Part shown: positions 1 through 39,720 of the stretch, one piece after another
How the letters are laid out: each line of letters starts with the position of its first letter
Position numbering within the stretch: the stretch's first letter is position 1
IMG/VR virus record: IMGVR_UViG_3300049023_000163
Span: 1-39,794 of that record
Strand: one strand, 5' to 3'
Source: a virus
Taxonomy: Duplodnaviria; Caudoviricetes
DNA length: 39,794 nucleotides
Position numbers and translations under genes: made by a program
The notes under the pieces: generated by a model
The model's database searches: none
Told to the model about the DNA's origin: nothing
Seen by the model: the letters and a program-made list of their open reading frames with translations, nothing else

Positions 1-960
1 CTGGCGGGCTTCAGCGTCCATGTCGTCGTTGATGATCCCGAACACATAAGGCTTGTGTTTACCGCGGCGATCGAGGATATCGCGCAACTGTGTGGATATT
101 GGTATTATGATCTCCACCTGTTCGTGCACGGTATCCTTGGTTTTCCTGCGGATGAACTTGAAGTAATCGGGCCGAAAGTTCTCGACGCGGAGGTAAGCCA
201 TATCGGTGAAGTTCATGCCATTCGCGTAGTAGCTGAACAGCGCGTAGTCCTTTGCCGCGGATTCGGCATCGATCGTTGGTACGAATGCCACCAGCCGATC
301 TTTGACGTCCTTCGGTATCGGCTTCTTCACTGTTCTTTTCTTCCGAATGACGTACTTTTCTTTCCCAAAGGGATATTGATCGTCGCTGATCAGATGTCGG
401 TTACGGTTGATTACGGCCTTCAGTGTGCGGAGATAAATGCCGATGGAGTTCAGGGACATGCCGGCGGCGAGCTTCCGCGTCTCGTAGTTCTTGAGCCAGG
501 TGGAGTCGATGTCGCTGATCTGCAGATCTGGATCTTCACAGATGCTATTCATCGCATGCGCGTAGCTGGCGGAGGTCCGGAGCTTACCGATCGCTTTCTT
601 CTCGTCGATGACTTCCTGGAATAGATCTCGAAGTTTGGCGGTGACGGTTGTCTTGCCTTTGTACTTGGCGTCAAACTGATGTACACCGATGTAGTTCTGA
701 TCATCGAGCCAAGTGCTGACTTCATTCCTGATGGCGAAGATCTTTGTCTGCTGATCTTTCAATGTTCCTTTCGCTCGACCACGTTCAACGACTTTGAAGT
801 CCGATTCACTCATGTACTGCCGGGTCTTTACGTAACGACTGACAGTCTTCGAATGTCCATCGGTTCTTGTCTGCCAGGACACACGGACTTTAACAGGGTA
901 GAGCCCTCCTTCGACAGGACGACGGGTATCAAGAATAAGTGCGACCGATGGTTTTTGCAT
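1..960 (-). CDS. int: Tyrosine integrase (Bacteroidetes type), 3' end truncated by window edge
   Basis: Not in the ORF track. My translation from the ATG at 960 reads MQKPSVALILDTRRPVEGGLYPVKVRVSW...NSIGIYLRTLKAVIN...YPFGKEKY...FSYYANGMNFTDMAYL...FIRRKT, open to position 1. Arm-binding, core-binding and start of catalytic domain are recognisable; adjacent to the att site. Confidence 0.9.
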   Translation of the reverse strand, partial: MQKPSVALILDTRRPVEGGLYPVKVRVSWQTRTDGHSKTVSRYVKTRQYMSESDFKVVERGRAKGTLKDQQTKIFAIRNEVSTWLDDQNYIGVHQFDAKYKGKTTVTAKLRDLFQEVIDEKKAIGKLRTSASYAHAMNSICEDPDLQISDIDSTWLKNYETRKLAAGMSLNSIGIYLRTLKAVINRNRHLISDDQYPFGKEKYVIRKKRTVKKPIPKDVKDRLVAFVPTIDAESAAKDYALFSYYANGMNFTDMAYLRVENFRPDYFKFIRRKTKDTVHEQVEIIIPISTQLRDILDRRGKHKPYVFGIINDDMDAEARQ

Positions 961-990
961 GATTCGTGGTTAATGGCACGATGTTCGGGA

Positions 991-1013
991 ATTTGCAATA
1001 GATTTGCAACAGA
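991..1013 (+). repeat. Putative integrase arm-type site, copy 1 (ATTTGCAATAGATTTGCAACAGA)
   Basis: 22/23 identical to 1192-1214; tandem TTTGCAA half-sites; the two copies flank the tRNA fragment. Confidence 0.7.
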
Positions 1014-1112
1014 GGCCGGAAATAGTGCGGAAATGAGTGGGAAATGAATGGGCAATGGGAGAGTGGAAACGGCCTTTTTGTGGGTGTATTCATCGAAATA
1101 CTGAAATTCCGG

Positions 1113-1161
1113 GCTGACTTGTAATCAGTAGGTCGCTGGTTCGATTCCGGCAGGGGGCTCA
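1113..1161 (+). mobile_element. attP: attP core: 3' half of tRNA-Thr(UGU)
   Basis: GCTGAC-TTGTAA-TCAG anticodon arm, GGTTCGATTCC T-arm and acceptor 3' strand are present; no 5' half upstream; next to integrase. Confidence 0.85.
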
Positions 1162-1190
1162 AAAAAGGCGGTTTTATCGACCGCCTTTTT
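1162..1190. terminator. Bidirectional intrinsic terminator after tRNA fragment
   Basis: AAAAAGGCGGT-N7-ACCGCCTTTTT inverted repeat. Confidence 0.8.
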
Positions 1191-1191
1191 C

Positions 1192-1214
1192 ATTTGCAAT
1201 AAATTTGCAACAGA
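1192..1214 (+). repeat. Putative integrase arm-type site, copy 2
   Basis: ATTTGCAATAAATTTGCAACAGA; direct repeat of 991-1013. Confidence 0.7.
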
Positions 1215-1589
1215 ATGGACTTCCCGAAGGACTATCCACTTGGCATGGTGATCCGTACTCTGAAGGACGGATTGGAGGGAATTATTGTTGATCGCGAACA
1301 GCCTTTTCAGGGCTTCATTAGATTCATTGTGGAGATGCGCACAGGAGAGACGGTGCTGATGAACACCGATCAGTTTCTACCGATCGAAGATCCTGTACAT
1401 GGGATACTGGAGGACTGGCATGCCGAAGCTCGGCGACGCGGTTATAACTGGATCGTTATTGGATGGGATGTATCAGGTGAATGGCATTGTGTGTTTCATC
1501 AAGAAGGTGAACCATTCAATTCACCTTCTCATTTTGTTCCGCGGTATCATTGGCCGGTCCGAGGGAGCGCCAGTCCTCCATCGCCTTAA
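1215..1589 (+). CDS. Hypothetical protein
   Basis: 124 aa ORF with protein-like composition, filling the gap after attP. Confidence 0.55.
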   Translation: MDFPKDYPLGMVIRTLKDGLEGIIVDREQPFQGFIRFIVEMRTGETVLMNTDQFLPIEDPVHGILEDWHAEARRRGYNWIVIGWDVSGEWHCVFHQEGEPFNSPSHFVPRYHWPVRGSASPPSP

Positions 1590-2013
1590 CAAACGTGATC
1601 TGTGATAGATGCATCTCAGATCCAGGGGCATATTTCTCAAGCATGCGCAGCCGAAACTTATGTTCTTTCAGATGCAACTGAAAGCCACGCATCGGGAATG
1701 CTGTGAAACAAAGGTACTCGTACATTTCTTCCTCCGTCCATTTAGAACCAAGGAATTCGATCACTTCATCAACCTCTTGTTCTTCCGGCTCGGGTTCTGG
1801 TTGAGGTTTATAGTATATCTCGCGTTCCATCTCTGTTGGAACGGCAAGACCAAAGGTTTCGAATAGTAGGTTCGGAGCTCCCATCTCCATCAGACTTATA
1901 CGCATCTCATTATTGGTCGGTACCTTGTATTCAACAGTGTTGCCGAAGCAAGGATGTGTTGCATGCGCGAGCAGACCATCAAGTTCAGCTCCGCAGTGTG
2001 GGCATTTACTCAT
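1516..2013 (-). CDS. Hypothetical protein with N-terminal CxxC
   Basis: Last gene of coupled minus-strand operon. Confidence 0.65.
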   Translation of the reverse strand: MSKCPHCGAELDGLLAHATHPCFGNTVEYKVPTNNEMRISLMEMGAPNLLFETFGLAVPTEMEREIYYKPQPEPEPEEQEVDEVIEFLGSKWTEEEMYEYLCFTAFPMRGFQLHLKEHKFRLRMLEKYAPGSEMHLSQITFVKAMEDWRSLGPANDTAEQNEKVN

Positions 2014-2356
2014 AGATCGTGTATTCAGGGTGATCGGGATGCGGTCCTTTGTTTTTCATTGGCTTGAAGTAGGTGTCCTTTATGAATGGTCCAGCTACAC
2101 TGATCAGCATGTTCTTGTATGGCATTTCTCCTTTCATTATTGTGAACTTCTCACCATCAAAATGAGCGATTTCACCTTCCTTGAGATCTGGCCATTTTAG
2201 CACGGAGTCGGCATCGTAAATGAAATTACCAGTTTCCTTATAGATCTCCATGAGCCCTTTCACCTTATCGATGTCACGTTGTTTCTCACGTTTGGCATCA
2301 ATTTCTAGATGAAGATGCTCACAAGCTTTATCAAGTTCTTTGTTCCAGTCTTTCAT
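2006..2356 (-). CDS. Hypothetical protein
   Basis: Start/stop overlaps with neighbours. Confidence 0.7.
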   Translation of the reverse strand: MKDWNKELDKACEHLHLEIDAKREKQRDIDKVKGLMEIYKETGNFIYDADSVLKWPDLKEGEIAHFDGEKFTIMKGEMPYKNMLISVAGPFIKDTYFKPMKNKGPHPDHPEYTIYE

Positions 2357-2883
2357 GATTTCTTTCGGCGTTTATTGAACCATACAACAAAATCTCTTTC
2401 TGATGGATCACGCGGGACCCTGTATTGTCCGGTGGGCTCCTTGTACTTGCGTGCTGGGGTATGTACGATGCGAAGTAGTTTGCCGCGATCTTTTTTCAAT
2501 TGTTTCCAATTAGTGACACCATTAAAGCTGGTGCTACTCCAAGACCAACCATTGGGCCACTCCCAGATCGAATCGTAGCGTTCTTTGTTCCATACCATTA
2601 TCTCGGTACCACGTTTTGCGAGATCGTAGTTGAACTGTTTGTTTTCTTTTATACAAACATCGTGACCACCATGAGAGATAGAGGCACCGCCGCCGATGTG
2701 CATTACATGCCCATGCTCACAATAATTCCAGTAATCCCTGCGCTCAACGGTCACTGGATTGGCGTGTAGATCGTAAATGTATTCTTTGAAGATCGAATCA
2801 CTGACTGTCAGGTTGCCGATCTTGAATTGCGCGCAGGCTGATCCGGAAATCAGACAGGCGATGAGTAATGTTAGTGTTTTCAT
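2353..2883 (-). CDS. Hypothetical exported protein
   Basis: MKTLTLLIACLISGSACA-Q signal peptide followed by Gln (Bacteroidetes-like); ATGA coupling. Confidence 0.7.
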   Translation of the reverse strand: MKTLTLLIACLISGSACAQFKIGNLTVSDSIFKEYIYDLHANPVTVERRDYWNYCEHGHVMHIGGGASISHGGHDVCIKENKQFNYDLAKRGTEIMVWNKERYDSIWEWPNGWSWSSTSFNGVTNWKQLKKDRGKLLRIVHTPARKYKEPTGQYRVPRDPSERDFVVWFNKRRKKS

Positions 2884-3278
2884 ACATCATTCCGATAGGT
2901 TGCTGTGATACTTGGATTCATTCGTTCGTAAGCTTCAAGCATGGCATCAATCTCTTCGATCTGCAGCTTTATTGATCCAGCTTCACGACCGGATTTCTTT
3001 TCATACAGATCACGGAGATTGTTTCTAATGTCGCGTTGCTGGATGTAGTGATCATCGGATTCTATTACCGGAGGCGCTATAAGATGACGATGTTTTTTGA
3101 TCTCGTTGATCAGCTCGTCAGGCAAATCGTTGAGATTGTGCATGAAATACTCTCCGTTCTTTTCTTCGATCCAGTATGGAATGAAGTAGTATGTACTACT
3201 ATCGGTAGCCACAAGTGATGCGTGCGTCTTTAACAGATTGACTGTCTCAGCGTGCAGGTTGATTTTGATTTTTGCCAT
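2880..3278 (-). CDS. Hypothetical protein
   Basis: ATGA coupling to downstream gene. Confidence 0.7.
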   Translation of the reverse strand: MAKIKINLHAETVNLLKTHASLVATDSSTYYFIPYWIEEKNGEYFMHNLNDLPDELINEIKKHRHLIAPPVIESDDHYIQQRDIRNNLRDLYEKKSGREAGSIKLQIEEIDAMLEAYERMNPSITATYRNDV

Positions 3279-3285
3279 TTTGTTT

Positions 3286-3582
3286 TTATCTCTTCTTTTT
3301 CTTGGGTCGTAAACTAAAAAAGCTCGGTAATCCTTCGAAGCATTTGAAATGCCAGATAGGAACAGTTCGTTCTTTTCCTTCCCATGATTTAGCTGTGATC
3401 ACAATCGTTTCATTGGTCGATGATACAACAGTGTACAAGCCACGCAGGGTGCGAAGGTGAATTCTTGCTCCTGGTTTAAATCTTGAAGATGTTATCTTCG
3501 TTGAAGCATGTTCCATCGCAGGAGGGATGTTTGACTCTCGGTATAGTAATACATCGTCATAGAATGATTGCACTTGGAACAT
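3286..3582 (-). CDS. Hypothetical protein
   Basis: Start overlaps upstream stop. Confidence 0.6.
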   Translation of the reverse strand: MFQVQSFYDDVLLYRESNIPPAMEHASTKITSSRFKPGARIHLRTLRGLYTVVSSTNETIVITAKSWEGKERTVPIWHFKCFEGLPSFFSLRPKKKKR

Positions 3583-3968
3583 CAGTTAAAGTTATTTGAT
3601 TTTGCGATCATTACAGAAGATTGCTTGATGAGGAAGTATGTCTTTCCCAACAATGTGAGTTCCAGCGATTGCTGGCCGCGCATGAAATACACTTCATCGC
3701 CGACGTTGACCTTCAACGGGATGTGAATGGTCTTACGTCCATCAGTGAGTGTATCTTGTTCGGTGTGTGTCGGATATCCATCACCTTTGCGGATGACAAA
3801 GCCACGGATCATCTCCGGAACTTTGGGATGGCCAGGCTGAGCGATCAACGCAACTTTCGGGATAACAATACCGGAATCGGTTTTATGTTCATTCGATTCC
3901 TTTGCCGGCTCGACAAGCAGTGCGTCCTGCACTACGTAGTATTCGTCAGGTAGTTTGTCGGTTGTCAT
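3582..3968 (-). CDS. groES: GroES/Cpn10-like co-chaperonin
   Basis: DALLVEP...KTDSGIVIP (mobile loop)...G.VI..GDG...PLKVNVGDEVYF...GKTYFLIKQSSV. Confidence 0.8.
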   Translation of the reverse strand: MTTDKLPDEYYVVQDALLVEPAKESNEHKTDSGIVIPKVALIAQPGHPKVPEMIRGFVIRKGDGYPTHTEQDTLTDGRKTIHIPLKVNVGDEVYFMRGQQSLELTLLGKTYFLIKQSSVMIAKSNNFN

Positions 3969-4393
3969 AGTTCGTTTTCTTTAAAGGTGAAACAGCCTGA
4001 TATCCATTCTTGGATGATCTTTACTTTATGCGAATCGTAATCGAAGTCTCCACCGAGTGGTTCATCATTGAATCCGGGACGCCATTTGTATTCTAAAATG
4101 TAAGTAGCTCCTTCAAAGTCAACACCTACCCCAAGATCATTTTCGGAGTAGTAAGTTTTTCCGTCAACCTCGATAACACGATGGAGCTTTGTTGACGTCC
4201 TACAATTGAAACCTTCATGAAGACGCATAGCAAGGTGCCTTGCATCTAACTTTTTCTCAATGTCCTGCAGTTTGTCAATGTAAACCTGTCGCTCTTTTGC
4301 AGTATCGAAATAATGGTGTCCTGGTTTCTCGCCATGCTTATTCCATTCATTGTAGAAGCCACCCCATGTGTACAGATAATACTCGTATTTCAT
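3965..4393 (-). CDS. Hypothetical protein
   Basis: ATGA-coupled on both sides. Confidence 0.7.
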   Translation of the reverse strand: MKYEYYLYTWGGFYNEWNKHGEKPGHHYFDTAKERQVYIDKLQDIEKKLDARHLAMRLHEGFNCRTSTKLHRVIEVDGKTYYSENDLGVGVDFEGATYILEYKWRPGFNDEPLGGDFDYDSHKVKIIQEWISGCFTFKENEL

Positions 4394-5718
4394 ACAGCGA
4401 TTTTAGATTGTTCTTGAGATGCGATCATAATTCTGTCCAGATCTGAAAAGATCTTGTGTTGGTCGACACGCGCATACACCTTCTCGGTCTCCGTGATACT
4501 TGTATGTCCCATCATCCTGGATACCGACTCCATCGAGAACCCAAGAGAAAGCATTCGCGTCCCGAACAGATGGCGACCAAGGTGTGAGCGACTGCTCATA
4601 TCCTCATTGTGCTTGATACGATAGAAGTGTAGCAGTCCGCTGATCTTGCGCTTGTACGTATCATACGATACCTGCGGGCTGCAGTCGTAGTTCAGGACCG
4701 TCAAGATCTCCAATGTCTGTGGGAATATCGGAACAGGTGCAAGCTCACCGGTCTTCACACGGTTGTAGACAAGTGAGTCACGATTAGCCAAGTCCTTGGT
4801 GATGTAGTTCCGGATGTTCTTACCGTACTTCTCAAGATCAGCGAATGCCATTCCGGTCCATGTCTGCAGCAGGAAAAGAAGTCGCGCGCGTGAGAGATCA
4901 CCGCCCGTGGTATCTTTCGCATGCAGTTCTTCCTTGCCGACTTCAATTGAGCGAGCGGCGATCGATACGGTCTCGATCTTGTGAAGATCCTCCGGAGAAA
5001 TTTTCCACATGATCTCAGCTGAGCGGTCTTCCTCCTTCTCGGTGATCGCGGAGTATCCCTGTAAGATGTTGGTCTTGATCTCACCGAGCTTCGTAGCCCA
5101 ATTGATGACGGCCTTGAACTTGTTCATGTACTCGATGATCGATGATGCGTTGTACATCCTGCCTTTCGGTCCAAAGGACTTCTGCAGATACAACTCAAAG
5201 CGGTACACCAGCGCGGTCTCCATCTCATCACAGAAAAGATCCTGCTGATTGGTCTTCGAGAGAAACGCACGCAGCGCGATCTCCATGGCCCGGTAGATGT
5301 CACCGGTTGCCGGCGCGAGCTTCATCGCGGTCTTATACTCCTGGATCAACTCGAAGAAACTTCGACGCACAGGTTCCTTGATGCCATTCTTCCAGGCGTC
5401 CATGATATCACGACAGCGTGGCTCGATCTTCAGCACGCTCTTCAACTTATGGTACAGGAGTTCGACCTTCTTCATCGACTCCCGGATGTTTTCGTTCTGC
5501 AGCATGGTGAGTTCATCATCTCCTTTGATCCATGGCCCGAAGGCCGTCAGGCAGTGTGCCCAACGCTCGTGCTCGATGTGTATCCCGAGATAGATCTTTC
5601 CCATGCCCTCACCGAACTTCTGTTTGTAGTTCGGATTGTACAGGCCGAGGTACACGGTATATATCTCCTTCTTCGGGAGCTTGGTGCATACAACACCTAT
5701 AGTGAATAAATTTTTCAT
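4390..5718 (-). CDS. Second tyrosine recombinase/integrase
   Basis: TGMAFADL, RVKT, SHLGRHLFGT, SRMMGH, EKVYA motifs. Start moved to ATG 5718 because the upstream extension overlaps a structured RNA. Confidence 0.9.
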   Translation of the reverse strand: MKNLFTIGVVCTKLPKKEIYTVYLGLYNPNYKQKFGEGMGKIYLGIHIEHERWAHCLTAFGPWIKGDDELTMLQNENIRESMKKVELLYHKLKSVLKIEPRCRDIMDAWKNGIKEPVRRSFFELIQEYKTAMKLAPATGDIYRAMEIALRAFLSKTNQQDLFCDEMETALVYRFELYLQKSFGPKGRMYNASSIIEYMNKFKAVINWATKLGEIKTNILQGYSAITEKEEDRSAEIMWKISPEDLHKIETVSIAARSIEVGKEELHAKDTTGGDLSRARLLFLLQTWTGMAFADLEKYGKNIRNYITKDLANRDSLVYNRVKTGELAPVPIFPQTLEILTVLNYDCSPQVSYDTYKRKISGLLHFYRIKHNEDMSSRSHLGRHLFGTRMLSLGFSMESVSRMMGHTSITETEKVYARVDQHKIFSDLDRIMIASQEQSKIAV

Positions 5719-5744
5719 GTTCGGGGGATTTGTAAATAAATAAG

Positions 5745-5922
5745 GCGGGGCATCAGCTGACCCCGCCTCTAACCATAAAACACAAAGATGAACTTCGTGT
5801 GCTGACTGTCTTGAATGTTTTTTAAAAGCCCGTGGCAGCTTATCTCCACAGGCTTTATGGCTACGTTTCCTCTCATTCCACATCTCGACCAATGTAGTAG
5901 CCCGGAACGTGATCTTAAATGA
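5745..5922 (-). ncRNA. Candidate small RNA or structured leader upstream of second integrase
   Basis: TATATTTG promoter element just upstream; hairpins GGCTAC/GTAGCC and AAAGCCTGTGG/CCACGGGCTTT; single-stranded segment antisense to early-gene leaders; terminator-like AGGCGGGG/CCCCGCCT plus TATTTATTT. Confidence 0.55.
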
Positions 5923-5927
5923 CTTTG

Positions 5928-5935
5928 CAAATATA
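5928..5935 (-). promoter_or_regulatory. Bacteroidetes -7 promoter element TATATTTG
   Basis: Matches TAnnTTTG; intergenic, just after the MTase stop. Confidence 0.55.
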
Positions 5936-5937
5936 TG

Positions 5938-7893
5938 TTATCCTTGCCAGATAATTCCCAACGTTTTACGTTTCCGATTTTCATTAATCTTCTTGTAGTC
6001 CGACGACAGTTCAATCTCGATTGCATCACCACCAAGTTGTATTGCCACCAGTCCAGTGGTTCCGGCACCAGCGAAAGGATCAAGCACCACGAATTTTCCA
6101 CGCTCTGTGGTCTCGCATGCGCAGGTCTTCTCCCATCCATCTGTCTGATACTCGTAATAACGGCCGCTCTGATGCCCGGACTTCGCTCTATTGCTTCCTT
6201 GATCTTGTGCATCTGCATCGTGATCACGTTTGTCGACGACGATGTTCTTCGGTGCACTTTTCAATGCGCGAAGATCTTTCTTCACCACACGTTGATACGG
6301 TGCTCCACAATCAGCACAGACGCCATAGGCGGAGGTACCGGCCAGGATGCATAGTCGTGGTAGTTCTTCGGGGAACGTCGCGAAGTGCGCCTCCTTGAAT
6401 GCCTGTGTAGAGATGTCCCACACATCATCGTAGTGTAGCTGTTCCTTCGCGTATTTCTCCCAGAGGACAGCGAAGATCCCGGGTTCAAGGTTTTGCTCCA
6501 ACCACTTCCAGAGAAACAGCGGGTCATCAATCTCCCAGACGGATCTTTTATTTGCGAGACCATTTCCAAGCAATGAACCATCAGCTGCGTAATTGCCACT
6601 ATGATTACGCAAACCTTGATCTCCTTCATTACTTCGATGATCATAACCTTTACGCTGCGCTTCGATTGATCGGCCTTTGTGAACCTTGGATTGAGCCCAA
6701 GAGCCAGGTGTTCGGTCAGCATCTTTTATGAAGCTACCGTGATCACCTTTCCCTGTAGCCCAATTGGATGATTTCTTAGCCAGGGTATTTTTGGTGATGT
6801 CACTTACTTTTGAGGCAATAGCAATTTGATCGTAGAAATACCTCTTCGACTTCGCGAACATGAAGATGTATTCATGCGCTTTGGTGCAACGATCCTTCGC
6901 GGACTCTGGCATCGGGTTACGTTTCTTCCAGATGACATCCTGCCTCAGATAAAATCCTTCTTCATACAAGGATGGAACGGGTTGTAACCAGCGCGGTAGA
7001 TCGACGTCTTGTCCTTTGTTAAGCTTTGAAAGACTTTCCATCATCCATGATCGGCGTTCCTGTTGTGCGGGGAGGTAACCTTTTTTCTTAGATTTTAAGC
7101 CCTTCTGCATTTCTAGAAAGTTCCATGCTATAATAGCCTGTTTCTTTTTCGCTACCAGATATGGGAATATCTCACAAATGAACAGCTGTTTTATTTTAGT
7201 CTTTTCAACGTCCCATCGATACACAGTTTTGTTTTTTTTGTCACCTTTCTCGTACACATTCCTTTTTTCTTGAGGGAATAAAAGTATACACCTATCAATG
7301 ATGTCTGTGGAAGAGTTGGTAATAGTTATATAGATGTTTGTTTTCGTTTTTCCGGCGAACAGGTATTCTGTTCCGCAAATGCTACCCTCAGCATCTAACA
7401 TGGCGGCCATCCACATTCTATCAGTTTCGGATTTAATAACACCTGTGTAGAATGGCGCCTTTAAAGCCTCTGCTAATTTCCAAGGGATACCCACCATGTC
7501 CTTTGCTTTTAGTCCCCCGACTATTTTATTCTTCTGACGCAGGTTGATCAGCTGCGTACCTTTTCCACCAATCAGTGTGCTGGCTTTCGTTGCTTGAGCC
7601 GGCGACCGGTTCTTTTGCTTCGATGCGTAGCTATCACCGATATTGATCCATAGTGTTCCATCATCACGTAAGATGCGACGCACCTCACGGAAGACCAACA
7701 CCACCTTCTGTACAAATTCTTCCGGAGTAGGTTCAAGACCAAGCTGGCCTTCTACTCCGTAGTCACGCAAATTCCAGTAAGGCGGAGAGGTCACTACGAC
7801 GTGCACGGACTTGTCCGGGATCTGTCGCAGGATCTTCAACGCGTCACCGAGTGTGACTTTGTTGAGCCATTGAGATAAGTCAATTCTTTTCAT
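5938..7893 (-). CDS. Beta-class N4-C/N6-A DNA methyltransferase with in-frame LAGLIDADG insertion
   Basis: TSPPY near N terminus, GIPW...GFYLRQDVIWKKRNPMPES...HEYIF, HFATFP, C-terminal LDPFAGAGTT. Confidence 0.92.
   Translation of the reverse strand: MKRIDLSQWLNKVTLGDALKILRQIPDKSVHVVVTSPPYWNLRDYGVEGQLGLEPTPEEFVQKVVLVFREVRRILRDDGTLWINIGDSYASKQKNRSPAQATKASTLIGGKGTQLINLRQKNKIVGGLKAKDMVGIPWKLAEALKAPFYTGVIKSETDRMWMAAMLDAEGSICGTEYLFAGKTKTNIYITITNSSTDIIDRCILLFPQEKRNVYEKGDKKNKTVYRWDVEKTKIKQLFICEIFPYLVAKKKQAIIAWNFLEMQKGLKSKKKGYLPAQQERRSWMMESLSKLNKGQDVDLPRWLQPVPSLYEEGFYLRQDVIWKKRNPMPESAKDRCTKAHEYIFMFAKSKRYFYDQIAIASKVSDITKNTLAKKSSNWATGKGDHGSFIKDADRTPGSWAQSKVHKGRSIEAQRKGYDHRSNEGDQGLRNHSGNYAADGSLLGNGLANKRSVWEIDDPLFLWKWLEQNLEPGIFAVLWEKYAKEQLHYDDVWDISTQAFKEAHFATFPEELPRLCILAGTSAYGVCADCGAPYQRVVKKDLRALKSAPKNIVVDKRDHDADAQDQGSNRAKSGHQSGRYYEYQTDGWEKTCACETTERGKFVVLDPFAGAGTTGLVAIQLGGDAIEIELSSDYKKINENRKRKTLGIIWQG
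6961..7455 (-). mobile_element. LAGLIDADG homing endonuclease-like insert (about 165 aa) inside the MTase
   Basis: WMAAMLDAEGSI motif, ITITNSS..II, VYRW, IFPYLVAKKKQA; visibly more AT-rich than flanks; interrupts the ALxA-xGxYLRQD motif. Boundaries approximate. Confidence 0.8.
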
Positions 7894-7914
7894 AGGTCGG
7901 GGGTTGTTGGAGAT

Positions 7915-8013
7915 TTATGAATTATTAATTATAAAGTAGATGACTAGCGCTTCAGTAATTGCCGCGATGGTCACCAAGATTATGAGTGCTCGATAGCTTT
8001 TGTTATTTGTCAT
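7915..8013 (-). CDS. Small single-pass membrane peptide (32 aa)
   Basis: My translation MTNNKSYRALIILVTIAAITEALVIYFIINNS. Confidence 0.4.
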   Translation of the reverse strand: MTNNKSYRALIILVTIAAITEALVIYFIINNS

Positions 8014-8089
8014 GGGGATGTTTTTTTACATTTTCAATTTGATTCCTTGCACATGGTACTGGCATCGTTTATTTCTGTAAGTTGGTCTT

Positions 8090-8368
8090 ATGGAACAACC
8101 AGACATCAGGGCTCGATATATTCCCGAGGAGGAATACGAGCAACTCGTGAAGAACTACTTGAAGCATTTCAAGGGTAATACAGAATCCGTTTCATTCAAC
8201 TTGTATGATCTAGCTGCGATCATGCGTCAACCGGGAGCTGACGCGATAACGATTGTGTTCGGAGCTGATAAGAAAGGGAAGTTGACGGTGATGTTGAAAT
8301 CTACTTCACAAGGCCGTGATACTATACAGTATAAAAGCGACGACAGTCTTGGTGCATGGGGAAAATAA
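8090..8368 (+). CDS. Hypothetical protein, opposite orientation between the two MTases
   Basis: 92 aa; fills the intergenic space, converging on the Dcm stop. Confidence 0.6.
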   Translation: MEQPDIRARYIPEEEYEQLVKNYLKHFKGNTESVSFNLYDLAAIMRQPGADAITIVFGADKKGKLTVMLKSTSQGRDTIQYKSDDSLGAWGK

Positions 8369-8373
8369 TCGGA

Positions 8374-10212
8374 TTACATCAAAGTCTCCACGCAGCGCTC
8401 CACCAGGAACTTCATCACCGGCGGTGTTACTGCGTTTCCGAGTTGTTTCACTTTTGATTTTGAATCACCGAGCACGATGTAGTCTTCATCGAATGCCATC
8501 CCGAGTTGAATCTCATGTGGTAGAAGCATCCGATAATAGCAGTCTTCGAGTTTTGGTTTCTCATACGGCTGTTCGATGAGCATTGCACGTTCTTTGGTTG
8601 ACGCTGTGCGCATCGCCTCCGTGATGTGTGACGCTACGTTAGATCCTCCATAGTAGTAGGAGAGGAATGAATTGAAGGCCTTGTCTGTCAGGATCCCGTG
8701 GCGCTCGCGGGTAGTCATACCCCCAAACTCTTTCTCAGATGAATGTGGCAGCGACTTGCCATTGCCGACGGTGATGATCGGTGTTAGTAATCCTGCGCTT
8801 TCTTGCGTTGTCTGGGTGAATCCTTCATCTGTAACAGGTTTGATTCGGCCAGTATATTCTCCGGTTGTAATGAGTGGAGGAACAACAACTGCTTTGTCCT
8901 GCAATGTGGTCTGAGTGTTGACAACTTGTAGGCTGGATCTTTCCAAACCTTTACCGGTCTTGTTTGAGGTGTTACTGGTGTTAACAATCAGCGGAGCTTG
9001 GAAGATTGCATGATGATCAGCGGTTGTATGTGCGCCGAGTTCATGATCAGCTGGCTTTGCTGCATGTTTTGCTTCGAAGTTTCCACCGAAGTTCTTAATC
9101 ACCAATGGCGGACTGAACAAGCTTTCACGTGCTTCAGTCATCTGTGGTGCTAGTGCGTCGTGCGAGGATTTCACGCGAGACCCTATGCCTGAGATATATC
9201 TCCCGGAGATGATCGCAGGTTTCAGGATACCGACTGCAGCGTTTTGCGGCTGTGTTGTGAGTGAATCATCAGAAACAGACTTCACACGGAAGTCAACACC
9301 TGATGAGTACTTCACATTGATAAACGACGGTTCATTCCAATACTTATCGATACCGTACTGACAGCGCTCTTCTGTTTTGGGCGATAGACGTCTCTTTCGA
9401 TCGCCGATACGTGTTCCTGGACGAGACCAGTCGATCACATTGAATGCAGCGTAGAAGTATGGCTCTACGATCGAATGGCAATCGGGACATTTGAACACAT
9501 ACTGAATGCGATACTTGCCGATGGTCTTCGTCGGGTTCTTCCAGTGTTGATATGCTTCAACGTTTTTGCAACACTTCACGCATGGAGCAATTGGTTGATG
9601 TTCGAGATCCGGCGCTTTGTTTCCTTTCTTCCAGAAGACACAGTACATGCGATCGCGTGACTGTGGAGTAGGATGGAAGTGCATGGAGTTGAAGTACTTG
9701 ATCTGGTGATTGTATCCAAGCTTATCCATTGCCATCAGCCAGACGTCAAACAATTCCCATTTACGGGCTTCTACGACGTTCTCCACGATGATGATCTCAT
9801 AGCGATGGTATTCCGCGAATCGTGGTACATCGAACATCGTAGCGCGTGAACGATCTTCAGCCTCTTCCCATGCGAACTTCCCAGACAACGCTAGTTGGTT
9901 GCCGTAGATTTTCTTCTTCGCATGGCCACCGCCAGCCGGTGAGTGCACCGTACATTCAGGAGATGTGATGAGGATGGTAGTGCTTCCAAATCGACGAGGA
10001 TCTGAACTGCTGATATTCTCACATGCGTGTTCGGCCTCCGGGAAATTGGTATTATGTGTCTCGATCGCCAGCGGCCAGTGATTCATCGCGAGCTTTACTT
10101 CGAGACCGGTGTTCAGTTTCTTCTCACGGGCAACGAGACGAACGCCTTGTGAACTTCCCCCAGCTCCGCAGAACTGATCGGTGACGGTTATTGTACTTCC
10201 TTTACGTGGCAT
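8374..10212 (-). CDS. dcm: C5 cytosine DNA methyltransferase
   Basis: DQFCGAGG (I), SPEC (IV), IVENV (VI), PQSRDRMY (VIII), QLGNAV (X). Confidence 0.93.
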   Translation of the reverse strand: MPRKGSTITVTDQFCGAGGSSQGVRLVAREKKLNTGLEVKLAMNHWPLAIETHNTNFPEAEHACENISSSDPRRFGSTTILITSPECTVHSPAGGGHAKKKIYGNQLALSGKFAWEEAEDRSRATMFDVPRFAEYHRYEIIIVENVVEARKWELFDVWLMAMDKLGYNHQIKYFNSMHFHPTPQSRDRMYCVFWKKGNKAPDLEHQPIAPCVKCCKNVEAYQHWKNPTKTIGKYRIQYVFKCPDCHSIVEPYFYAAFNVIDWSRPGTRIGDRKRRLSPKTEERCQYGIDKYWNEPSFINVKYSSGVDFRVKSVSDDSLTTQPQNAAVGILKPAIISGRYISGIGSRVKSSHDALAPQMTEARESLFSPPLVIKNFGGNFEAKHAAKPADHELGAHTTADHHAIFQAPLIVNTSNTSNKTGKGLERSSLQVVNTQTTLQDKAVVVPPLITTGEYTGRIKPVTDEGFTQTTQESAGLLTPIITVGNGKSLPHSSEKEFGGMTTRERHGILTDKAFNSFLSYYYGGSNVASHITEAMRTASTKERAMLIEQPYEKPKLEDCYYRMLLPHEIQLGMAFDEDYIVLGDSKSKVKQLGNAVTPPVMKFLVERCVETLM

Positions 10213-10514
10213 GGTAGAATTTCCTTTTGAAAGTTTAAATGATATGGATTGTAAATAAGACCTTCTGGGATGCCGAAGATCTGCATTGGTTGTCCAGCAA
10301 AATGTGCGACGATGATATCGGCTATTGATGTGCTTCGTATATCAACACTGCTTATATCCTTGGTATTGACGACTTTGGTCACCCGTGGATTATCCGGATG
10401 ATGGACAACGATGTTACCCTGGATGCGAGTGAATCGGAGATCCTGCATTGCCGGGAATGGTTTGCCCAGCGTAGCGCATGGAAGGCTGCACTTTAGCTTT
10501 AGTGTCTGTTGCAT
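10188..10514 (-). CDS. Hypothetical protein (start uncertain)
   Basis: Fills gap before Dcm; overlaps upstream ORF. Confidence 0.5.
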   Translation of the reverse strand: MQQTLKLKCSLPCATLGKPFPAMQDLRFTRIQGNIVVHHPDNPRVTKVVNTKDISSVDIRSTSIADIIVAHFAGQPMQIFGIPEGLIYNPYHLNFQKEILPCHVKEVQ

Positions 10515-10776
10515 AGTTTTTGATTCGTTGTAGGTAGTCATTAAACCAGTCGATGATTTCATTCACGAACTCGGGGTTACGGTTCGCGAAGTACTCTGCT
10601 TGCTCCTGGACTGCTTCATTGCTGAACAGTGGATAGTAATGCGTGTATCGGAGATTGAACCAGAAATAAAGAAGGGCGATGTCTACGCCCTTCTCTATAA
10701 CCTTGTGTGCCTCCATCATCTCCGGCGTCGGTAGCTGCCGGATGATGTTAAGTGCTTTCATTTTGTCCTTTGTCAT
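10414..10776 (-). CDS. Hypothetical protein
   Basis: ATG 10776 directly follows upstream stop. Confidence 0.6.
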   Translation of the reverse strand: MTKDKMKALNIIRQLPTPEMMEAHKVIEKGVDIALLYFWFNLRYTHYYPLFSNEAVQEQAEYFANRNPEFVNEIIDWFNDYLQRIKNYATDTKAKVQPSMRYAGQTIPGNAGSPIHSHPG

Positions 10777-10777
10777 C

Positions 10778-11038
10778 TCAGCGCTCGTTTCTGAATTGTT
10801 CAATCAGTTCTCCTTGCCGGATAGCGTGGCTATTACGTTCTAGATACAGGTCCTCCGCCGTGGTGCCAGTCATCTCTTCATAAGCGCGCCGGTCATCCTC
10901 ATCATCAAGAATATCGTCGATTTGCTCCTGAGTTTCATCAATCAATTCCTCGATCGCGCGACGGTTCTCATCATCGGAGGATTGCGCCAACTGCATGCGT
11001 AAGTCCGCTAGTTTTCTTTTCAGTGCACGTATTGTCAT
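10778..11038 (-). CDS. Acidic coiled-coil hypothetical protein
   Basis: ATGA coupling. Confidence 0.7.
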   Translation of the reverse strand: MTIRALKRKLADLRMQLAQSSDDENRRAIEELIDETQEQIDDILDDEDDRRAYEEMTGTTAEDLYLERNSHAIRQGELIEQFRNER

Positions 11039-11259
11039 TTTCGTTTTGTGTTGAAGTGAATTTTCAGAAGATCCTGCAGTAGTTCAGTGGCCTTAGCTTC
11101 ATCAGCCTCTGAACAATGGAAATGGTGGACAATCCGATCAACAGTGCAGCAGATTGTCAAGCTTGGAGCCGCGCCATGCGCGAGTGTTAATTGAATTACC
11201 AAGAACTCCGGCATATTGAGCTTCCGTAGTGCGGCAAAGATTCTCTGTGCTTTTGTCAT
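11035..11259 (-). CDS. Hypothetical protein
   Basis: ATGA coupling on both ends. Confidence 0.7.
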   Translation of the reverse strand: MTKAQRIFAALRKLNMPEFLVIQLTLAHGAAPSLTICCTVDRIVHHFHCSEADEAKATELLQDLLKIHFNTKRK

Positions 11260-11645
11260 AACTGTTGCAGTTTGAGGTCAATGAATTTGTCCAGGGTATC
11301 ATGGAAGTTCTCCGCATCGATATCCGGATACAAGGTTTCGAATTCTGTGGCTATCATTGATGCCAGCGCTGCGCGTGAGAGATCGCCACCCAGATGTTCG
11401 ATGACTTTCAGCTTCTCCCAGTGTGGTGGGTATTCGTGGTGCTCCGGATCAGCGAGGAATTGATTGAATGCACAGGAGACGACGAACAACGTTTCATTGT
11501 ATAGCCTGGTGACCGTTACCTCAACGACACACCATACACCGTTTACTTTCTTAACCTGGATTGGATTGTATGCCCACTCCAAGTTTTTGCCAAGGGCAAC
11601 CAGCGCCGAGAATGGCGTGTTATTGCCTTCAAAGTAGATTTTCAT
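11256..11645 (-). CDS. Hypothetical protein
   Basis: ATGA coupling. Confidence 0.7.
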   Translation of the reverse strand: MKIYFEGNNTPFSALVALGKNLEWAYNPIQVKKVNGVWCVVEVTVTRLYNETLFVVSCAFNQFLADPEHHEYPPHWEKLKVIEHLGGDLSRAALASMIATEFETLYPDIDAENFHDTLDKFIDLKLQQL

Positions 11646-11920
11646 ACGGCAACGGTTTCCGGGATTAGTGCCGCGAAATGTACTTCAACTTCATAGTGAT
11701 GAAGCTCGTAATCCATTGCATCGAATGGGCATTCACGTGTGTACGTCCAATCAATCCACGCTTGCTTGTACTCGTCAATGGATTCATTGACCTCACGCGC
11801 GCGGAAACCCTTGGTGACGGCTTTGCGCTCGAAAGTGATCGCTGCGCTGAATAGCGTTTCGAATGCAATTGGAGCTTGAACAACGCCATGCTCGACCTCC
11901 TGTACGATAGTGATGGTTAA
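11642..11920 (-). CDS. Protein-like reading frame without a canonical 5' start codon
   Basis: LTITIVQEVEHGVVQAPIAFETLFSAAITFERKAVTKGF...IPETVAV*; stop overlaps the next ATG (ATGA at 11642-11645). Confidence 0.45.
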   Translation of the reverse strand, partial: LTITIVQEVEHGVVQAPIAFETLFSAAITFERKAVTKGFRAREVNESIDEYKQAWIDWTYTRECPFDAMDYELHHYEVEVHFAALIPETVAV

Positions 11921-11987
11921 GACAAAAAGAGACAGGCTGTGAACCTTTCTCCTGTTGTTTCGGATCGTGAATCCTCGTCAGTTAACC
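11915..11987 (-). ncRNA. Type I hammerhead ribozyme HH-D
   Basis: GGUUAA CUGACGA GGAU-ucacg-AUCC GAA ACAACAGGAGAAAGG-uucacag-CCUGUCUCUUUUUGU C^ UUAACC. Confidence 0.9.
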
Positions 11988-12203
11988 TTTCTTCTTTCCT
12001 TTGGTCCACTTCAATGGAATGGCGGACATTTGAGCATCTTCATCGAGATCGGGATTGAATAGATTCTCAACGCTCTCTGATTTTTCCAGTAGGGCAACCG
12101 ACACTTCAGTTACCGCATTATTCAAGAGATCGTTTGAAAGTGTAGGCACAGCTTTACGAATTGCATTTTTAATAGTCTTGTAGAAATCATTTTTTGAGTT
12201 CAT
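11982..12203 (-). CDS. Hypothetical protein (MNSKNDFYKT...)
   Basis: ATG follows the TAACCATAAAAACACAAAC leader; stop TAA lies within ribozyme stem I. Confidence 0.7.
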   Translation of the reverse strand: MNSKNDFYKTIKNAIRKAVPTLSNDLLNNAVTEVSVALLEKSESVENLFNPDLDEDAQMSAIPLKWTKGKKKG

Positions 12204-12217
12204 GTTTGTGTTTTTAT

Positions 12218-12280
12218 GGTTAAGACCTCCGGGTGACCCAGTCCCGAAGGTTTCGGCTATTGAAGCCTCATCAGTTAACC
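12218..12280 (-). ncRNA. Type I hammerhead ribozyme HH-C
   Basis: GGUUAA CUGAUGA GGCU-ucaau-AGCC GAA ACCUUCGGG-acuggguca-CCCGGAGGU C^ UUAACC. Confidence 0.92.
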
Positions 12281-12282
12281 TT

Positions 12283-12531
12283 TTAGATGAATGAGAATTC
12301 GACTTTGAGCCTTGCTTTCTGGTGTAGCATCTTGTCGATAGGTTCACCAAGTATTTCGCATATCTTGATCACCTCGTTCAATTTTGGAGTTGTCCTGCAT
12401 TCTTCGATTCTTGCGATGATCGTCTTGGTTTTGAAATTGCAAAACGATGCTAGGTCACGCGATGTCATTCCTTGCGCTGTTCTAACGGTCTTCATATTCT
12501 GAGCGAACCGTTTCAATTGTTCTTCATTCAT
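12283..12531 (-). CDS. XRE/Cro-CI family helix-turn-helix protein
   Basis: NMKTVRTAQGMTSRDLA...IARIEECRTTPKLNEVIKICEILG. Confidence 0.85.
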   Translation of the reverse strand: MNEEQLKRFAQNMKTVRTAQGMTSRDLASFCNFKTKTIIARIEECRTTPKLNEVIKICEILGEPIDKMLHQKARLKVEFSFI

Positions 12532-12543
12532 AACATTGCTGTT

Positions 12544-12948
12544 TTAACCTCGATGTCCCGGAAAGAAATCATCACCCAGATCAATGTCGGCCGTGACCTT
12601 TCCTCCAATATGTGTTCTGATTGCGCGATCGATGACCGCGTTACTGATTCCTGTATCCGGATCAAAGTGCTTTTTAAGGTTTCCTATGATGTAGAAACAG
12701 TCTTCCATCGTTAGAGGATAACCAAGAGCTTGCGCCCTCCTGGTTATATGTGACAGCCGCCAAAGTCCCTTGAATATGTGGCCGTCGTCCAGTGGCCGAT
12801 AGCTTTCAAAGATTTGAGTGTTGAAAGCTTCACGCACGGCGCGTTCACGCTCTTCAAGCCGTTGCACACGTGTTTGGTAAATGACGTACACCATAGCGAC
12901 CGCCGCCAGGAGCGCGAATACCAATACAGTTACTTCCCCGTTGTTCAT
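12544..12948 (-). CDS. Hypothetical membrane-anchored protein
   Basis: N-terminal hydrophobic helix; ATGA coupling. Confidence 0.7.
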   Translation of the reverse strand: MNNGEVTVLVFALLAAVAMVYVIYQTRVQRLEERERAVREAFNTQIFESYRPLDDGHIFKGLWRLSHITRRAQALGYPLTMEDCFYIIGNLKKHFDPDTGISNAVIDRAIRTHIGGKVTADIDLGDDFFPGHRG

Positions 12949-13154
12949 CTTGATATTTGTTTAGTTGTGAATGAGACCAATGATTTGACGATTCCCGAGA
13001 TCAGGAACTTCGCCAAGAAGATCAGCGCCGCGACAGCGCCAACGTTTACCGCCAAGATGCCAGCCTCGCGGATGATCACAATGATCGCCGGTAGGGCAAT
13101 CAATAAATGAGAAAGGAGCCGCGCGATGCGACTCCCGATGAGCTTCCGAAACAT
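12945..13154 (-). CDS. Small membrane protein (2 TM)
   Basis: Hydrophobic; ATG follows ribozyme HH-B leader. Confidence 0.65.
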   Translation of the reverse strand: MFRKLIGSRIARLLSHLLIALPAIIVIIREAGILAVNVGAVAALIFLAKFLISGIVKSLVSFTTKQISR

Positions 13155-13169
13155 AAAGAATAAAGTTAT

Positions 13170-13230
13170 GGTTAAGACTCCGAACGCTGGAAGCCCGGAG
13201 TTTCGCTTATTTAAAGCTCGTCAGTTAACC
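13170..13230 (-). ncRNA. Type I hammerhead ribozyme HH-B
   Basis: GGUUAA CUGACGA GCUU-uaaau-AAGC GAA ACUCCGGGC-uuccagc-GUUCGGAGU C^ UUAACC. Confidence 0.92.
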
Positions 13231-13491
13231 TAATGCAAATGGAATAGTACGCCGTTGTGTCGGCATTTTACGTAGACCTGTCGTCTCTATGATCCTGATC
13301 CGTTCAACACGAACGATCTTAAAATCCTGTGAGACATACAAAGCACAACCCGAAAGCCAATTCTTGTACTCATCACGGACACCCACACAAAAACAAATGA
13401 CGCCGTTCCAAGCGCCATTGTATTCTACCGTATCAACCGGAATAGTCACAAGCTTCGCGACCCGTTCCGAACATTCATCATCCAATACCAT
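13225..13491 (-). CDS. Hypothetical protein
   Basis: Stop TAA lies within HH-B stem I. Confidence 0.6.
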   Translation of the reverse strand: MVLDDECSERVAKLVTIPVDTVEYNGAWNGVICFCVGVRDEYKNWLSGCALYVSQDFKIVRVERIRIIETTGLRKMPTQRRTIPFALG

Positions 13492-13502
13492 TACATCAAG
13501 CG

Positions 13503-13685
13503 TTAAATCAGACTCAAAACAAATTTGAAATAATCATCCGGAACAGCTGATTCGTAGTACTGGTCAAGAATCCATTTACTGAACTCCTCGCGTTCGTAAT
13601 CATTTAAAGATTGATACCCTTTTCGGCTATCCTTACGATTACCGTTGAACCAATTGTCAATGATGTGTTGAAATTTCTCTTCCAT
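13503..13685 (-). CDS. Hypothetical protein (MEEKFQHIIDNW...)
   Basis: ATG follows the TAACCATAAACACAAAGATC leader. Confidence 0.7.
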   Translation of the reverse strand: MEEKFQHIIDNWFNGNRKDSRKGYQSLNDYEREEFSKWILDQYYESAVPDDYFKFVLSLI

Positions 13686-13700
13686 GATCTTTGTGTTTAT

Positions 13701-13754
13701 GGTTAAGACCGCGACAATGCGCGGTTTCGGATACTTAATCCTCATCAGTTAACC
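13701..13754 (-). ncRNA. Type I hammerhead ribozyme HH-A
   Basis: GGUUAA CUGAUGA GGAU-uaagu-AUCC GAA ACCGCG-cauugu-CGCGGU C^ UUAACC. Confidence 0.92.
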
Positions 13755-13756
13755 TT

Positions 13757-13981
13757 CTAGAAGTCGAAATTGATCTCAACAAGCGTTAAAGGAGTCATAT
13801 ACCTGAAATTGTTGATGTCATCGAATGCAACGCATTCGTAACGCTTCGACATTCGATCGTAATCGTTGCGCACATATACTTTAGTCTGGCCTTGCTTACG
13901 GAAGTAATCACCTCGTTTCACGTCACGTAGATACACCACGCGAACACCGACATCGTGCCTATCAATCGTTATTGCTTCCAT
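13757..13981 (-). CDS. Hypothetical phage protein
   Basis: LRDVKRGDYFRK...VYVRNDYDRMSKRYEC; ends 2 nt before HH-A. Confidence 0.7.
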   Translation of the reverse strand: MEAITIDRHDVGVRVVYLRDVKRGDYFRKQGQTKVYVRNDYDRMSKRYECVAFDDINNFRYMTPLTLVEINFDF

Positions 13982-14075
13982 ACTCTTTGTTGATTAAATG
14001 ATCATCAAGAAGAACTAGACCGATTGAGCCAAATACGGCCACAACCGATAGGATACTGAGAATTAAAATGAACAT
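13962..14075 (-). CDS. Small membrane peptide, probable first gene of the ribozyme operon (37 aa)
   Basis: My translation MFILILSILSVVAVFGSIGLVLLDDHLINKEYGSNND; leader CTAACCATAAAACACA-ATG. Confidence 0.5.
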   Translation of the reverse strand: MFILILSILSVVAVFGSIGLVLLDDHLINKEYGSNND

Positions 14076-14425
14076 TGTGTTTTATGGTTAGTGAACGTCA
14101 TTATATCAAATGTGTGTACGCACAAATGATCTAAGACCGCACGGTTTTCACGCCCTAATCACTATTATCACCCCAAAAGTTTTAGACCTTTTGACCTTCG
14201 TATTAATGTGCTCATCAACAGGTGATTACATCTTTAAATAACCCTTATCAAGGGCTAAGTTTAAGGTATTGCAAGTGATTGAATGTGAGGGGCTAAGAGC
14301 CCTTTCCTACTAATGTATTTCAGATTGGTCTACTCTTGTAAATATAGTGAGCCGTCAATCCCCGCGCGCAAGTCGGGTTTTTGGTCGTGCACCTTAATTT
14401 CAGAATGTCAATGAACGTGGTTGAG

Positions 14426-14509
14426 TAGAACAAATGTATTATAACAAATGATATAGTACAAGTGTTAAGTAAAATATTTTAGAACAAATGTTTCAATCGT
14501 CTATCTTTG
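14426..14509. promoter_or_regulatory. Divergent promoter region with three operator-like 16-mers
   Basis: TAGAACAAATGTATTA (14426), TATAACAAATGATATA (14440), TAGAACAAATGTTTCA (14480); minus-strand TACATTTG and plus-strand TATCTTTG (14502-14509). Confidence 0.7.
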
Positions 14510-14513
14510 TGGA

Positions 14514-14765
14514 ATGCACACAATCATTAAGGGATATAAGAGCGCGTCAGACTTCGCGACCCAATACACAGGCAAGCGTGGAAAGGTTGGAGTATCAAGA
14601 ACTCAAATGCACTTTGTCATTAAGAAGGAGATGACAAGCCCAGGAACGACCGATATAGACGTTCTAGAGATAGCGGGACATTACTATGTTAGATATCGTG
14701 GAGTGAACGATCGTAGCGTAGAAGTGATTACAATCAACGAGGCGAGCCAGGTAGCGCCAGTGTAG
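14514..14765 (+). CDS. Small hypothetical protein, possible DNA-binding regulator
   Basis: Lone plus-strand gene right after a TAnnTTTG element and operator cluster; SASDFA...GVSRTQMHFVIKK is loosely HTH-like. Confidence 0.55.
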   Translation: MHTIIKGYKSASDFATQYTGKRGKVGVSRTQMHFVIKKEMTSPGTTDIDVLEIAGHYYVRYRGVNDRSVEVITINEASQVAPV

Positions 14766-27815: not shown

Positions 27816-27931
27816 CGGGGGTGAGAGGATTCGAACCTATGACCTCTACCAACATCAACAGTTCGTCGTGCGCAAGACTCGTGTTGATTTTTTGCTGGTA
27901 GCGCTCTAACCATCGACTGAGCTACAACCCC
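27816..27931 (-). ncRNA. tRNA-like RNA with 39-nt expansion of the anticodon loop
   Basis: GGGGUUG UA GCUC-AGUCGAUGGUUA-GAGC G CUACC-[46 nt]-GGUAG AGGUC AUAGG-UUCGAAU-CCUCU CACCCCC G. Confidence 0.75.
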
Positions 27932-29139: not shown

Positions 29140-29160
29140 TGTCTGGTCCGTGGTTATCGT

Positions 29161-29241
29161 TAGAACAAATGTAATAACAGAATAGTACGTTTGTCAAGTA
29201 AACATAGAACAAAAGTTATAATTATTATTACATTTGTTCTA
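29161..29241. promoter_or_regulatory. Divergent promoters with three operator-like 16-mers
   Basis: TAGAACAAATGTAATA (29161) and its exact inverted copy (29226-29241), each containing TACATTTG; TAGAACAAAAGTTATA (29205). Confidence 0.75.
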
Positions 29242-38928: not shown

Positions 38929-38980
38929 TGGGCAAATAAGGATTGTGCGGCTTACGACGCAACAAAAAGCAGAAGAAAAT

Positions 38981-38996
38981 TATAACAAATGTTCTA
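38981..38996. promoter_or_regulatory. Operator-like 16-mer TATAACAAATGTTCTA
   Basis: Same motif as at 14.4, 29.2 and 39.7 kb. Confidence 0.6.
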
Positions 38997-39691: not shown

Positions 39692-39720
39692 TCCGGTTCA
39701 AAATACCCAAAAAAATGCGA

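Follow-up and report, generated by a model that had tools for sequence, protein, structure and literature searches.

A candidate antisense RNA element ahead of a phage integrase gene matches the leaders behind hammerhead ribozymes

Introduction

The early operon of the phage analysed here holds four hammerhead ribozyme motifs, each followed by the leader of an early gene, and directly ahead of the integrase gene of the same phage lies a stretch complementary to those leaders. This raises the question of whether the stretch belongs to an RNA that acts on the early mRNAs and, if so, how it is made and what it does to them. In the main text of Perreault et al. 2011 (PMC3088659), prophage hammerheads are described as clustered, several of them bordering individual genes or small gene blocks in the vicinity of integrase genes, and they were proposed to cut long transcripts into shorter mRNAs.

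Results

The phage and the gap before its integrase gene

The window, i.e., the whole stretch of DNA analysed (39,794 nucleotides), is a 39.8-kb linear virus record that is 73% complete, is present in four soil DNA runs, two of them possible sources of the record, and encodes a terminase, a portal protein, two DNA methyltransferases and a tyrosine integrase. Because its terminase resembles those of Flavobacterium and Cellulophaga podoviruses (approximately 25% identity, 87 records) and those of two prophages in Chryseolinea genomes (58% identity), the host is likely a member of the Bacteroidota belonging to the Cytophagales.

The element under study occupies the whole 219-nt gap between the adenine/N4 methyltransferase gene (5938–7893, minus strand, with an HNH endonuclease domain inserted at residues 155–294), which ends at 5938, and the integrase gene (4390–5718, minus strand, 442 amino acids; PHROG 1 at E = 3e-19, PF00589 and PF13102 above cut-off), which starts at 5718; it thus lies directly 5´ of the latter.

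Several other features of the window were recorded. A partial tRNA at 1099–1160 is the likely attachment site, and a terminator-like hairpin closing the minus-strand operon adjoins it. The minus-strand tRNA at 27816–27931, matched by Rfam and missed by ARAGORN, carries around 46 extra letters in its anticodon arm, which may be an intron or an insertion. Two GroES-like genes are located at 3582–3968 (minus strand) and 29191–30222 (plus strand), and the ORF beside the former (3965–4393) is absent from a related strain. Finally, a repeated AGAACAAATGT element, found at 14431–14492, 29160–29242, 38974–38999 and 39712–39755, holds a -7 box in either direction; the copies are likely the promoters of the phage, with a divergent pair at 29173/29229.

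Hammerheads and a fifth structured motif in the early operon

The four hammerhead motifs and their leaders are located on the minus strand at 13683–13754 (A), 13152–13230 (B), 12201–12280 (C) and 11905–11987 (D), with predicted cuts after 13707, 13176, 12224 and 11921, respectively. The type I core (CUGAnGA, GAAA, NUH and three stems, with stem I open) was found in all four, as was the stem I GGUUAA/UUAACC, and the predicted fold was clean for A–C and partly different for D. Each predicted cut would leave a piece that starts with UUAACCAU, followed by an A-rich run and then a start codon. This assembly has a truncated leader behind D: 25 additional letters, which include an A-rich run and an ATG on the minus strand, follow 11910 in runs X1 and X3, and with these letters (contigs of X1 and X3) leader D resembles the other targets. 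The contigs of run X2 break at 11905–11920.

With regard to classification, the Rfam family nearest to hammerhead C is RAGATH-1 (RF03152), of which it is not a member by score (31.9 bits vs. a cut-off of 56.3). The layout of a hammerhead followed by a leader is ordinary among phages, where at least 131 such stretches were counted by one pattern and around 370 were estimated.

For comparison with related phages, six records with enough DNA and with either a terminase of 39–58% identity or an integrase of the same subfamily were employed, namely G001, G003, G004, G412, G521 and the window. A conserved structured RNA motif at 14089–14164 (minus strand) of the window shows the same core and fold in G001 (C1:22355–22420), G003 (C1:2080–2140), G004 (C25:180850–180918) and G521 (C1:64548–64642). 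It is a three-stem motif composed of a closing stem, AUUAGG, a small stem-loop, GCGGU and a long variable hairpin, with changes on both sides of the closing stem across phages. In all five phages it lies directly before the first early gene, whose leader forms its 3´ strand. Its position relative to the first leader corresponds to that of the hammerheads relative to the leaders behind them; the first leader may thus be a processed end as well, and the motif is a candidate ribozyme or processing site.

No Rfam match to the motif was obtained. It resembles the twister-sister ribozyme; none of the four records matched RF02681 at E ≤ 10. The CACATTTG sequence at 14114, open to misreading as a promoter, lies inside the hairpin of this motif, and a full promoter box is found at 14438.

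Complementarity to the early leaders and target specificity

A perfect 17-nt inverted match between 5769–5785 and the leader and start of the first early gene had been claimed in a preliminary description of this DNA. The match is real: all 17 letters are complementary to 14075–14091 (minus strand, target 1), which covers the A of the AUG of the first gene (37 amino acids). Equally borne out by the sequence were the matches with a one-A indel to the leaders behind hammerheads A (target 2) and C (target 3), and all coordinates of that description proved correct. The 17-nt match is the longest perfect inverted repeat in the window after one local hairpin. An inverted match of this length occurring anywhere, palindromes included, is not rare (15 of 60 simulated windows of the same make-up), whereas one falling on a gene leader is rare (chance approximately 0.001).

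Specificity was then addressed by running the proposed check against all phage leaders with ViennaRNA duplex and co-folding energies. The three best partners of the 22-nt anti-leader seed (5769–5790, minus strand) among the 261 start regions in the window were the leaders of C, A and the first gene, so that the intended targets took the top three places. The seed window also ranked first of 5680 windows, and the operon-strand sites with at least nine letters matching the seed precede a start codon in four cases out of four. The leaders behind B and D share only their first 7–9 nt in this assembly (9 nt for B, a weak target). The full RNA was calculated to bind leader 1 with a net -13 kcal/mol, leader A with -10, leader B with -11, leader C with -17 and leader D with -5 kcal/mol, where the value for B includes pairing outside the seed. 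No family was assigned to the early target genes by profile search.

The targets lie 6–8 kb from the seed, on the same strand. Since the best partners (first gene, A and C) are on pieces that predicted cleavage separates from the seed, action in trans would be called for. In one contig of run X3, from a related strain, an additional T follows 5769; with it, the seed would be able to pair bulge-free up to the cut site.

Anatomy and predicted fold of the element

In agreement with the minus-strand promoter element claimed earlier, a sequence match to the Bacteroidota sigma-A -7 box, TATATTTG, was found at 5935–5928; it is one of six TAnnTTTG boxes on the minus strand of the window. Taking the box to sit at -12 to -5 relative to the start, as given in the available text of PMC9723704, the RNA start is predicted near 5923. 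Measured from the box to the U tail (5734–5923, minus strand), the predicted RNA would be approximately 190 nt long instead of the 175 nt originally proposed, and on read-through it would also be the 5´ leader of the integrase mRNA. No Rfam match at E ≤ 1 was obtained within 5734–5923, and the region folds better than shuffled sequences (z = -3.6 to -4.8).

The two hairpins described beforehand recur in the predicted fold, at around 5897–5878 (hairpin 1) and 5856–5825 (hairpin 2), both on the minus strand. The seed, by contrast, had been described as an unpaired segment, and in the predicted fold of 5921–5734 it is on average 24% unpaired: its core pairs with an internal leader-like stretch at 5863–5854 (minus strand), which would thereby mask it, and part of it lies in a hairpin of its own at 5800–5780. 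The calculated opening cost was 6 kcal/mol for the 11-nt core and 14 kcal/mol for all 22 nt, and the core became 69% unpaired in the predicted fold once the 5´ half of the RNA was removed.

The GC-rich terminator-like hairpin reported after the seed came out at the top of the terminator scan (5734–5769, minus strand), with 10 pairs (7 of them G-C) at 5769–5742, an imperfect tail of 6 U in 8 and -20 kcal/mol; by a criterion of consensus match only, it is the best such site in 900–14700. AGCUGA is found in or near its loop, and in the same place in G004 and G521. In addition, the 5´ end of the RNA is predicted to be able to pair with the integrase start region.

Anti-leaders with changed tags in related phages

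The clearest independent case is G004, as the place of its anti-leader was predicted from the window. This Chryseolinea prophage has a TerL of 58% identity and a different stem I (GGUUUA/UAAACC). Over 120 kb, its two hammerhead junctions find their longest antisense match, of 14 nt, in the gap 5´ of the integrase gene, within a hairpin loop and ahead of a G-C hairpin with AGCUGA like that of the window. Its seed ranked second of 11424 windows, four of the five operon-strand partner sites precede start codons, and a terminator is located between the last hammerhead and the seed.

In G412, a 13-nt anti-leader stands before the strong terminator ending the hammerhead block and matches four neighbouring leaders with 10–13 letters, five out of seven sites lying before start codons. 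G003, with the tag AACUAA, has an 11-nt anti-leader before a hairpin and a terminator inside the operon (rank 4 of 11424). Both of these anti-leaders are far from the integrase gene. In G001, with eight hammerheads and no gap before the integrase gene, the only candidate is imperfect and precedes a terminator, so that an anti-leader in this phage is doubtful. The provirus G521, tested blind, showed neither hammerheads nor a convincing anti-leader; a hairpin loop before its integrase gene pairs with the first leader at rank 147 of 249. No TAnnTTTG box was detected within 300 nt of the candidate seed in any of G001, G003, G004 and G412.

Each seed paired best with the leaders of its own phage (-23, -22.5 and -15 kcal/mol vs. 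-8 to -19 kcal/mol), a preference that follows in part from the way of choosing the seeds. With regard to the suggested covariation of seed and leaders, a seed altered along with its targets was seen in G004, G412 and G003, was doubtful in G001 and was absent in G521. A single alignment of the anti-leader regions of five phages yielded no common RNA family (46% column identity).

The combination of seed pairing letters with a hairpin after them was then counted in 27 records, using matches of at least 10 letters across the tag. It was present in 4 of 9 matches in five related hammerhead phages and in none of the 29 matches in 22 other phages (p = 0.007 by Fisher's test with the window left out; the background rate was 5%), where the hairpin criterion and the inclusion of G412 as related were fixed after the hits had been seen; with G412 counted outside and the window excluded, the figures were 2 of 4 vs. 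1 of 33. The 22 other phages comprised 12 with and 10 without an integrase; nine were read only to 40 or 60 kb, and some are near-duplicates. In a less tailored test covering all segments before hairpins, none of the 101 control segments did as well as those of the window, G004 and G412 (genome-level p only 0.06–0.13). The site of G003 was not its best in this test, the best of G001 gave p = 0.07 per segment, and one of 19 unrelated phages also beat all controls (3 records left out).

The tag itself is of a frequent leader type; of 152 leaders taken from other phages, 4 share 12–14 letters with it. Taken as a whole, the support from relatives is real but modest, and consists of a recurring layout with changed tags and no conserved RNA.

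Two further observations concern leaders and gaps of this kind. In G466 (L348, L349), leaders with the same AACCAUAAAAC tag stand behind tRNA-like or hairpin elements instead of hammerheads. In G003, the same long hairpin occurs twice in early-operon gaps (L310:5420–5460 and 5806–5850) and is a possible RNase III site.

Wider searches

The exact 17-nt pattern was found at six loci in viral contigs, all of them lacking a hammerhead and a related context. Neither the integrase nor the terminase found relatives in single-protein scans, the terminase alignment scan gave distant relatives only among the matches listed, and G001 was the sole match of the A4 scan. In 59 other hammerhead loci with up to 10 kb of flank, the longest antisense match was 14 nt, in a coding context. 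A tyrosine integrase was present in 13 of 117 hammerhead records; none of these 13 had a convincing anti-leader in the 400 nt before the integrase gene, and the idea that the anti-leader is general to integrase phages was rejected.

With regard to integrase relatives, L138, L219, L221 and L222 showed neither a gap before the integrase gene nor a hammerhead in the DNA examined, and in L220 only eight matching letters were recognized by eye, in a structured element before the integrase gene. A branched hairpin closed by a G-C stem precedes the integrase gene in L218 (528–600) and L220 (1233–1306); it has no Rfam match and holds eight letters complementary to the hammerhead leader of L220. G522 and G523 had no hammerheads, and 401 family-level plus 401 order-level genomes yielded no new prophage of this group.

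Discussion

A lysogeny-type RNA acting in trans on early mRNAs

That the pairing between the element and the early leaders is functional in some way is likely. The reading that we favour, with a probability of about 0.5 on the sequence evidence, is that a promoter-driven, integrase-coupled, lysogeny-type RNA of approximately 190 nt blocks translation of the ribozyme-cut early mRNAs in trans. The promoter before the element would fire and most transcripts would stop at the hairpin, while read-through past it would produce the integrase mRNA and so tie the RNA to integrase expression. The hammerheads would cut the early transcript into pieces that all start with the unfolded tag, and cutting would therefore create the binding sites. 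On contact, the tag would displace the internal strand that masks the seed, and the resulting duplex would cover the A-rich region up to the AUG. Bacteroidota ribosomes use the A-rich region before the AUG in place of a Shine–Dalgarno sequence. Several early genes would thus be silenced together, probably when the phage integrates or lies dormant; the earlier suggestion of a role in lysogeny fits the position of the element ahead of the integrase gene.

The proposal of an antisense sRNA on the early leaders is supported by the target specificity, by the position and by the changed seeds of the relatives. A free-standing trans-acting sRNA, however, is not established by these data, as no promoter box lies near the candidate in four of four relatives.

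The second proposed activity, a switch of ribozyme cleavage or ligation, fared less well. For the uncut hammerheads A–C, the calculated probability of stem I fell from 0.42–0.93 to 0–0.02 in the dimer with the RNA, and this effect is a matter of calculation only; that a second RNA would bind before cleavage during transcription is doubtful. A switch is less likely than a block of translation, and if cleavage or re-ligation were affected, this would follow incidentally from pairing with the 3´ strand of stem I.

Rival readings

The seed could instead be functional as the 3´ end of the early transcript, the last piece folding back on its own leader or binding others, which would amount to a delayed, icaR-like shut-off of lytic early genes. 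In its favour, the seed of all four or five phages shares the strand of the operon, comes after the leaders and is closely followed by a hairpin or terminator, and four relatives show no promoter box near it. The window has one weak terminator-like site only from hammerhead D to the seed, and leader D, which would then be on one piece with the seed, resembles the other targets when the 25 letters of X1 and X3 are included. Against it, a full promoter box precedes the seed of the window by 146 nt, the perfectly matching leader is that of the first gene, from which four predicted cuts separate the seed, and in G004 a terminator intervenes between the last hammerhead and the seed. We regard this reading as rather unlikely.

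A lack of function would mean that the stretch is an inverted relic of a gene leader or, as the preliminary description itself had offered by way of refutation, a plus-strand leader for the mini-ORF MNFVC. On the other strand the order is indeed hairpin, leader and ATG, as before real genes in other phages, and an ATG follows in three of the five phages; a common tag and modest support from relatives point the same way. Nevertheless, no TAnnTTTG box was found on the plus strand within 250 nt in any of the five phages, and the peptides, of 5, 7 and 3 codons, bear no relation to one another and are missing from two phages, which makes the mini-ORF a weak objection. The recurrence of the arrangement ahead of hairpins, with other tags and in one phage at the matching position, likewise speaks against a lack of function. 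We consider a functionless element unlikely.

More improbable still is a sensor in the integrase leader, in which the cut early mRNAs would bind the seed and change how the integrase message folds, terminates or is translated. The element does lie in the integrase leader in both the window and G004, before an AGCUGA hairpin that G521 also has; an internal strand covers the seed, as would be expected of a switch; and the 5´ end of the RNA could reach the integrase start region. Yet the terminator-like hairpin is present in all predicted folds, whether or not a target is included, and G003 and G412 have their anti-leaders far from the integrase gene. The least probable reading is a site for a DNA-binding protein working in either orientation, in keeping with the same 17 letters in both orientations and with a helix-turn-helix protein encoded in the operon (12283–12531), given that the motif is not palindromic, that all other copies are on the coding strand right before start codons and that the match in G004 covers the ribozyme cut site.

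A possible all-RNA circuit

The reading of an RNA that blocks translation in trans can be extended to a circuit made of RNA throughout, in which the four hammerheads and the fifth structured RNA would tag every early piece and one integrase-linked RNA would read the tag, silencing translation and also blocking cleavage or circularisation through the 3´ strand of stem I. We hold this extension to be a long shot. If it were true, bacterial hammerheads would have their first natural trans-regulator in this element, and the single stem I common to phage hammerheads would be explained. An RNA aimed at ribozyme-made ends would give them a testable purpose, namely uniform addresses through which many early genes could be turned off at once.

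Comparison with known systems

No description of an antisense RNA aimed at ribozyme-made leaders was found in the open-licence literature, supplements aside. The C4 model (RF01695) gave no match at E ≤ 1 in the whole window. The c4 antisense RNA has two target sites and is processed by RNase P. As described in the available text of PMC8198154, c4 of P1 and P7 is alike in being a phage RNA that pairs with phage leaders and keeps lytic-side genes quiet in lysogeny; however, it lies upstream in the anti-repressor operon under its control (c4-icd-ant), whereas the seed studied here lies 6–8 kb downstream of its targets, before the integrase gene, and of the two only our element aims at leaders behind ribozymes.

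The RNAs sar of P22, OOP of lambda and aQ, as covered in the accessible text of a review (PMC12197685), are likewise phage RNAs that block translation of lysis–lysogeny genes, and aQ is co-ordinated with the integrase promoter. They are read opposite one target, in contrast to the element of the window, which overlaps no target and has several; the words ‘ribozyme’, ‘integrase’ and ‘Bacteroid’ are absent from that text of the review. A cis-encoded antisense RNA of the sar or OOP type was ruled out here by targets 6–8 kb away on the same strand. The likeness to c4 and sar is one of aim, and the element is a member of neither.

The icaR 3´-UTR of Staphylococcus aureus, in the available text of PMC3868564, resembles the element in that pairing of a stretch upstream of the terminator with the translation start region blocks initiation. 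There, a single mRNA and a Shine–Dalgarno target are involved; the leaders matched here are A-rich and belong to different pieces, and the element of the window has its own promoter box.

The prophage hammerheads of PMC3088659 are again near integrase genes and were proposed to cut transcripts, and the main text of that paper contains neither the word antisense nor an RNA aimed at cleavage ends. Set beside that text, in which clustered hammerheads in prophages are already known, the new part of the present locus would be the antisense copy.
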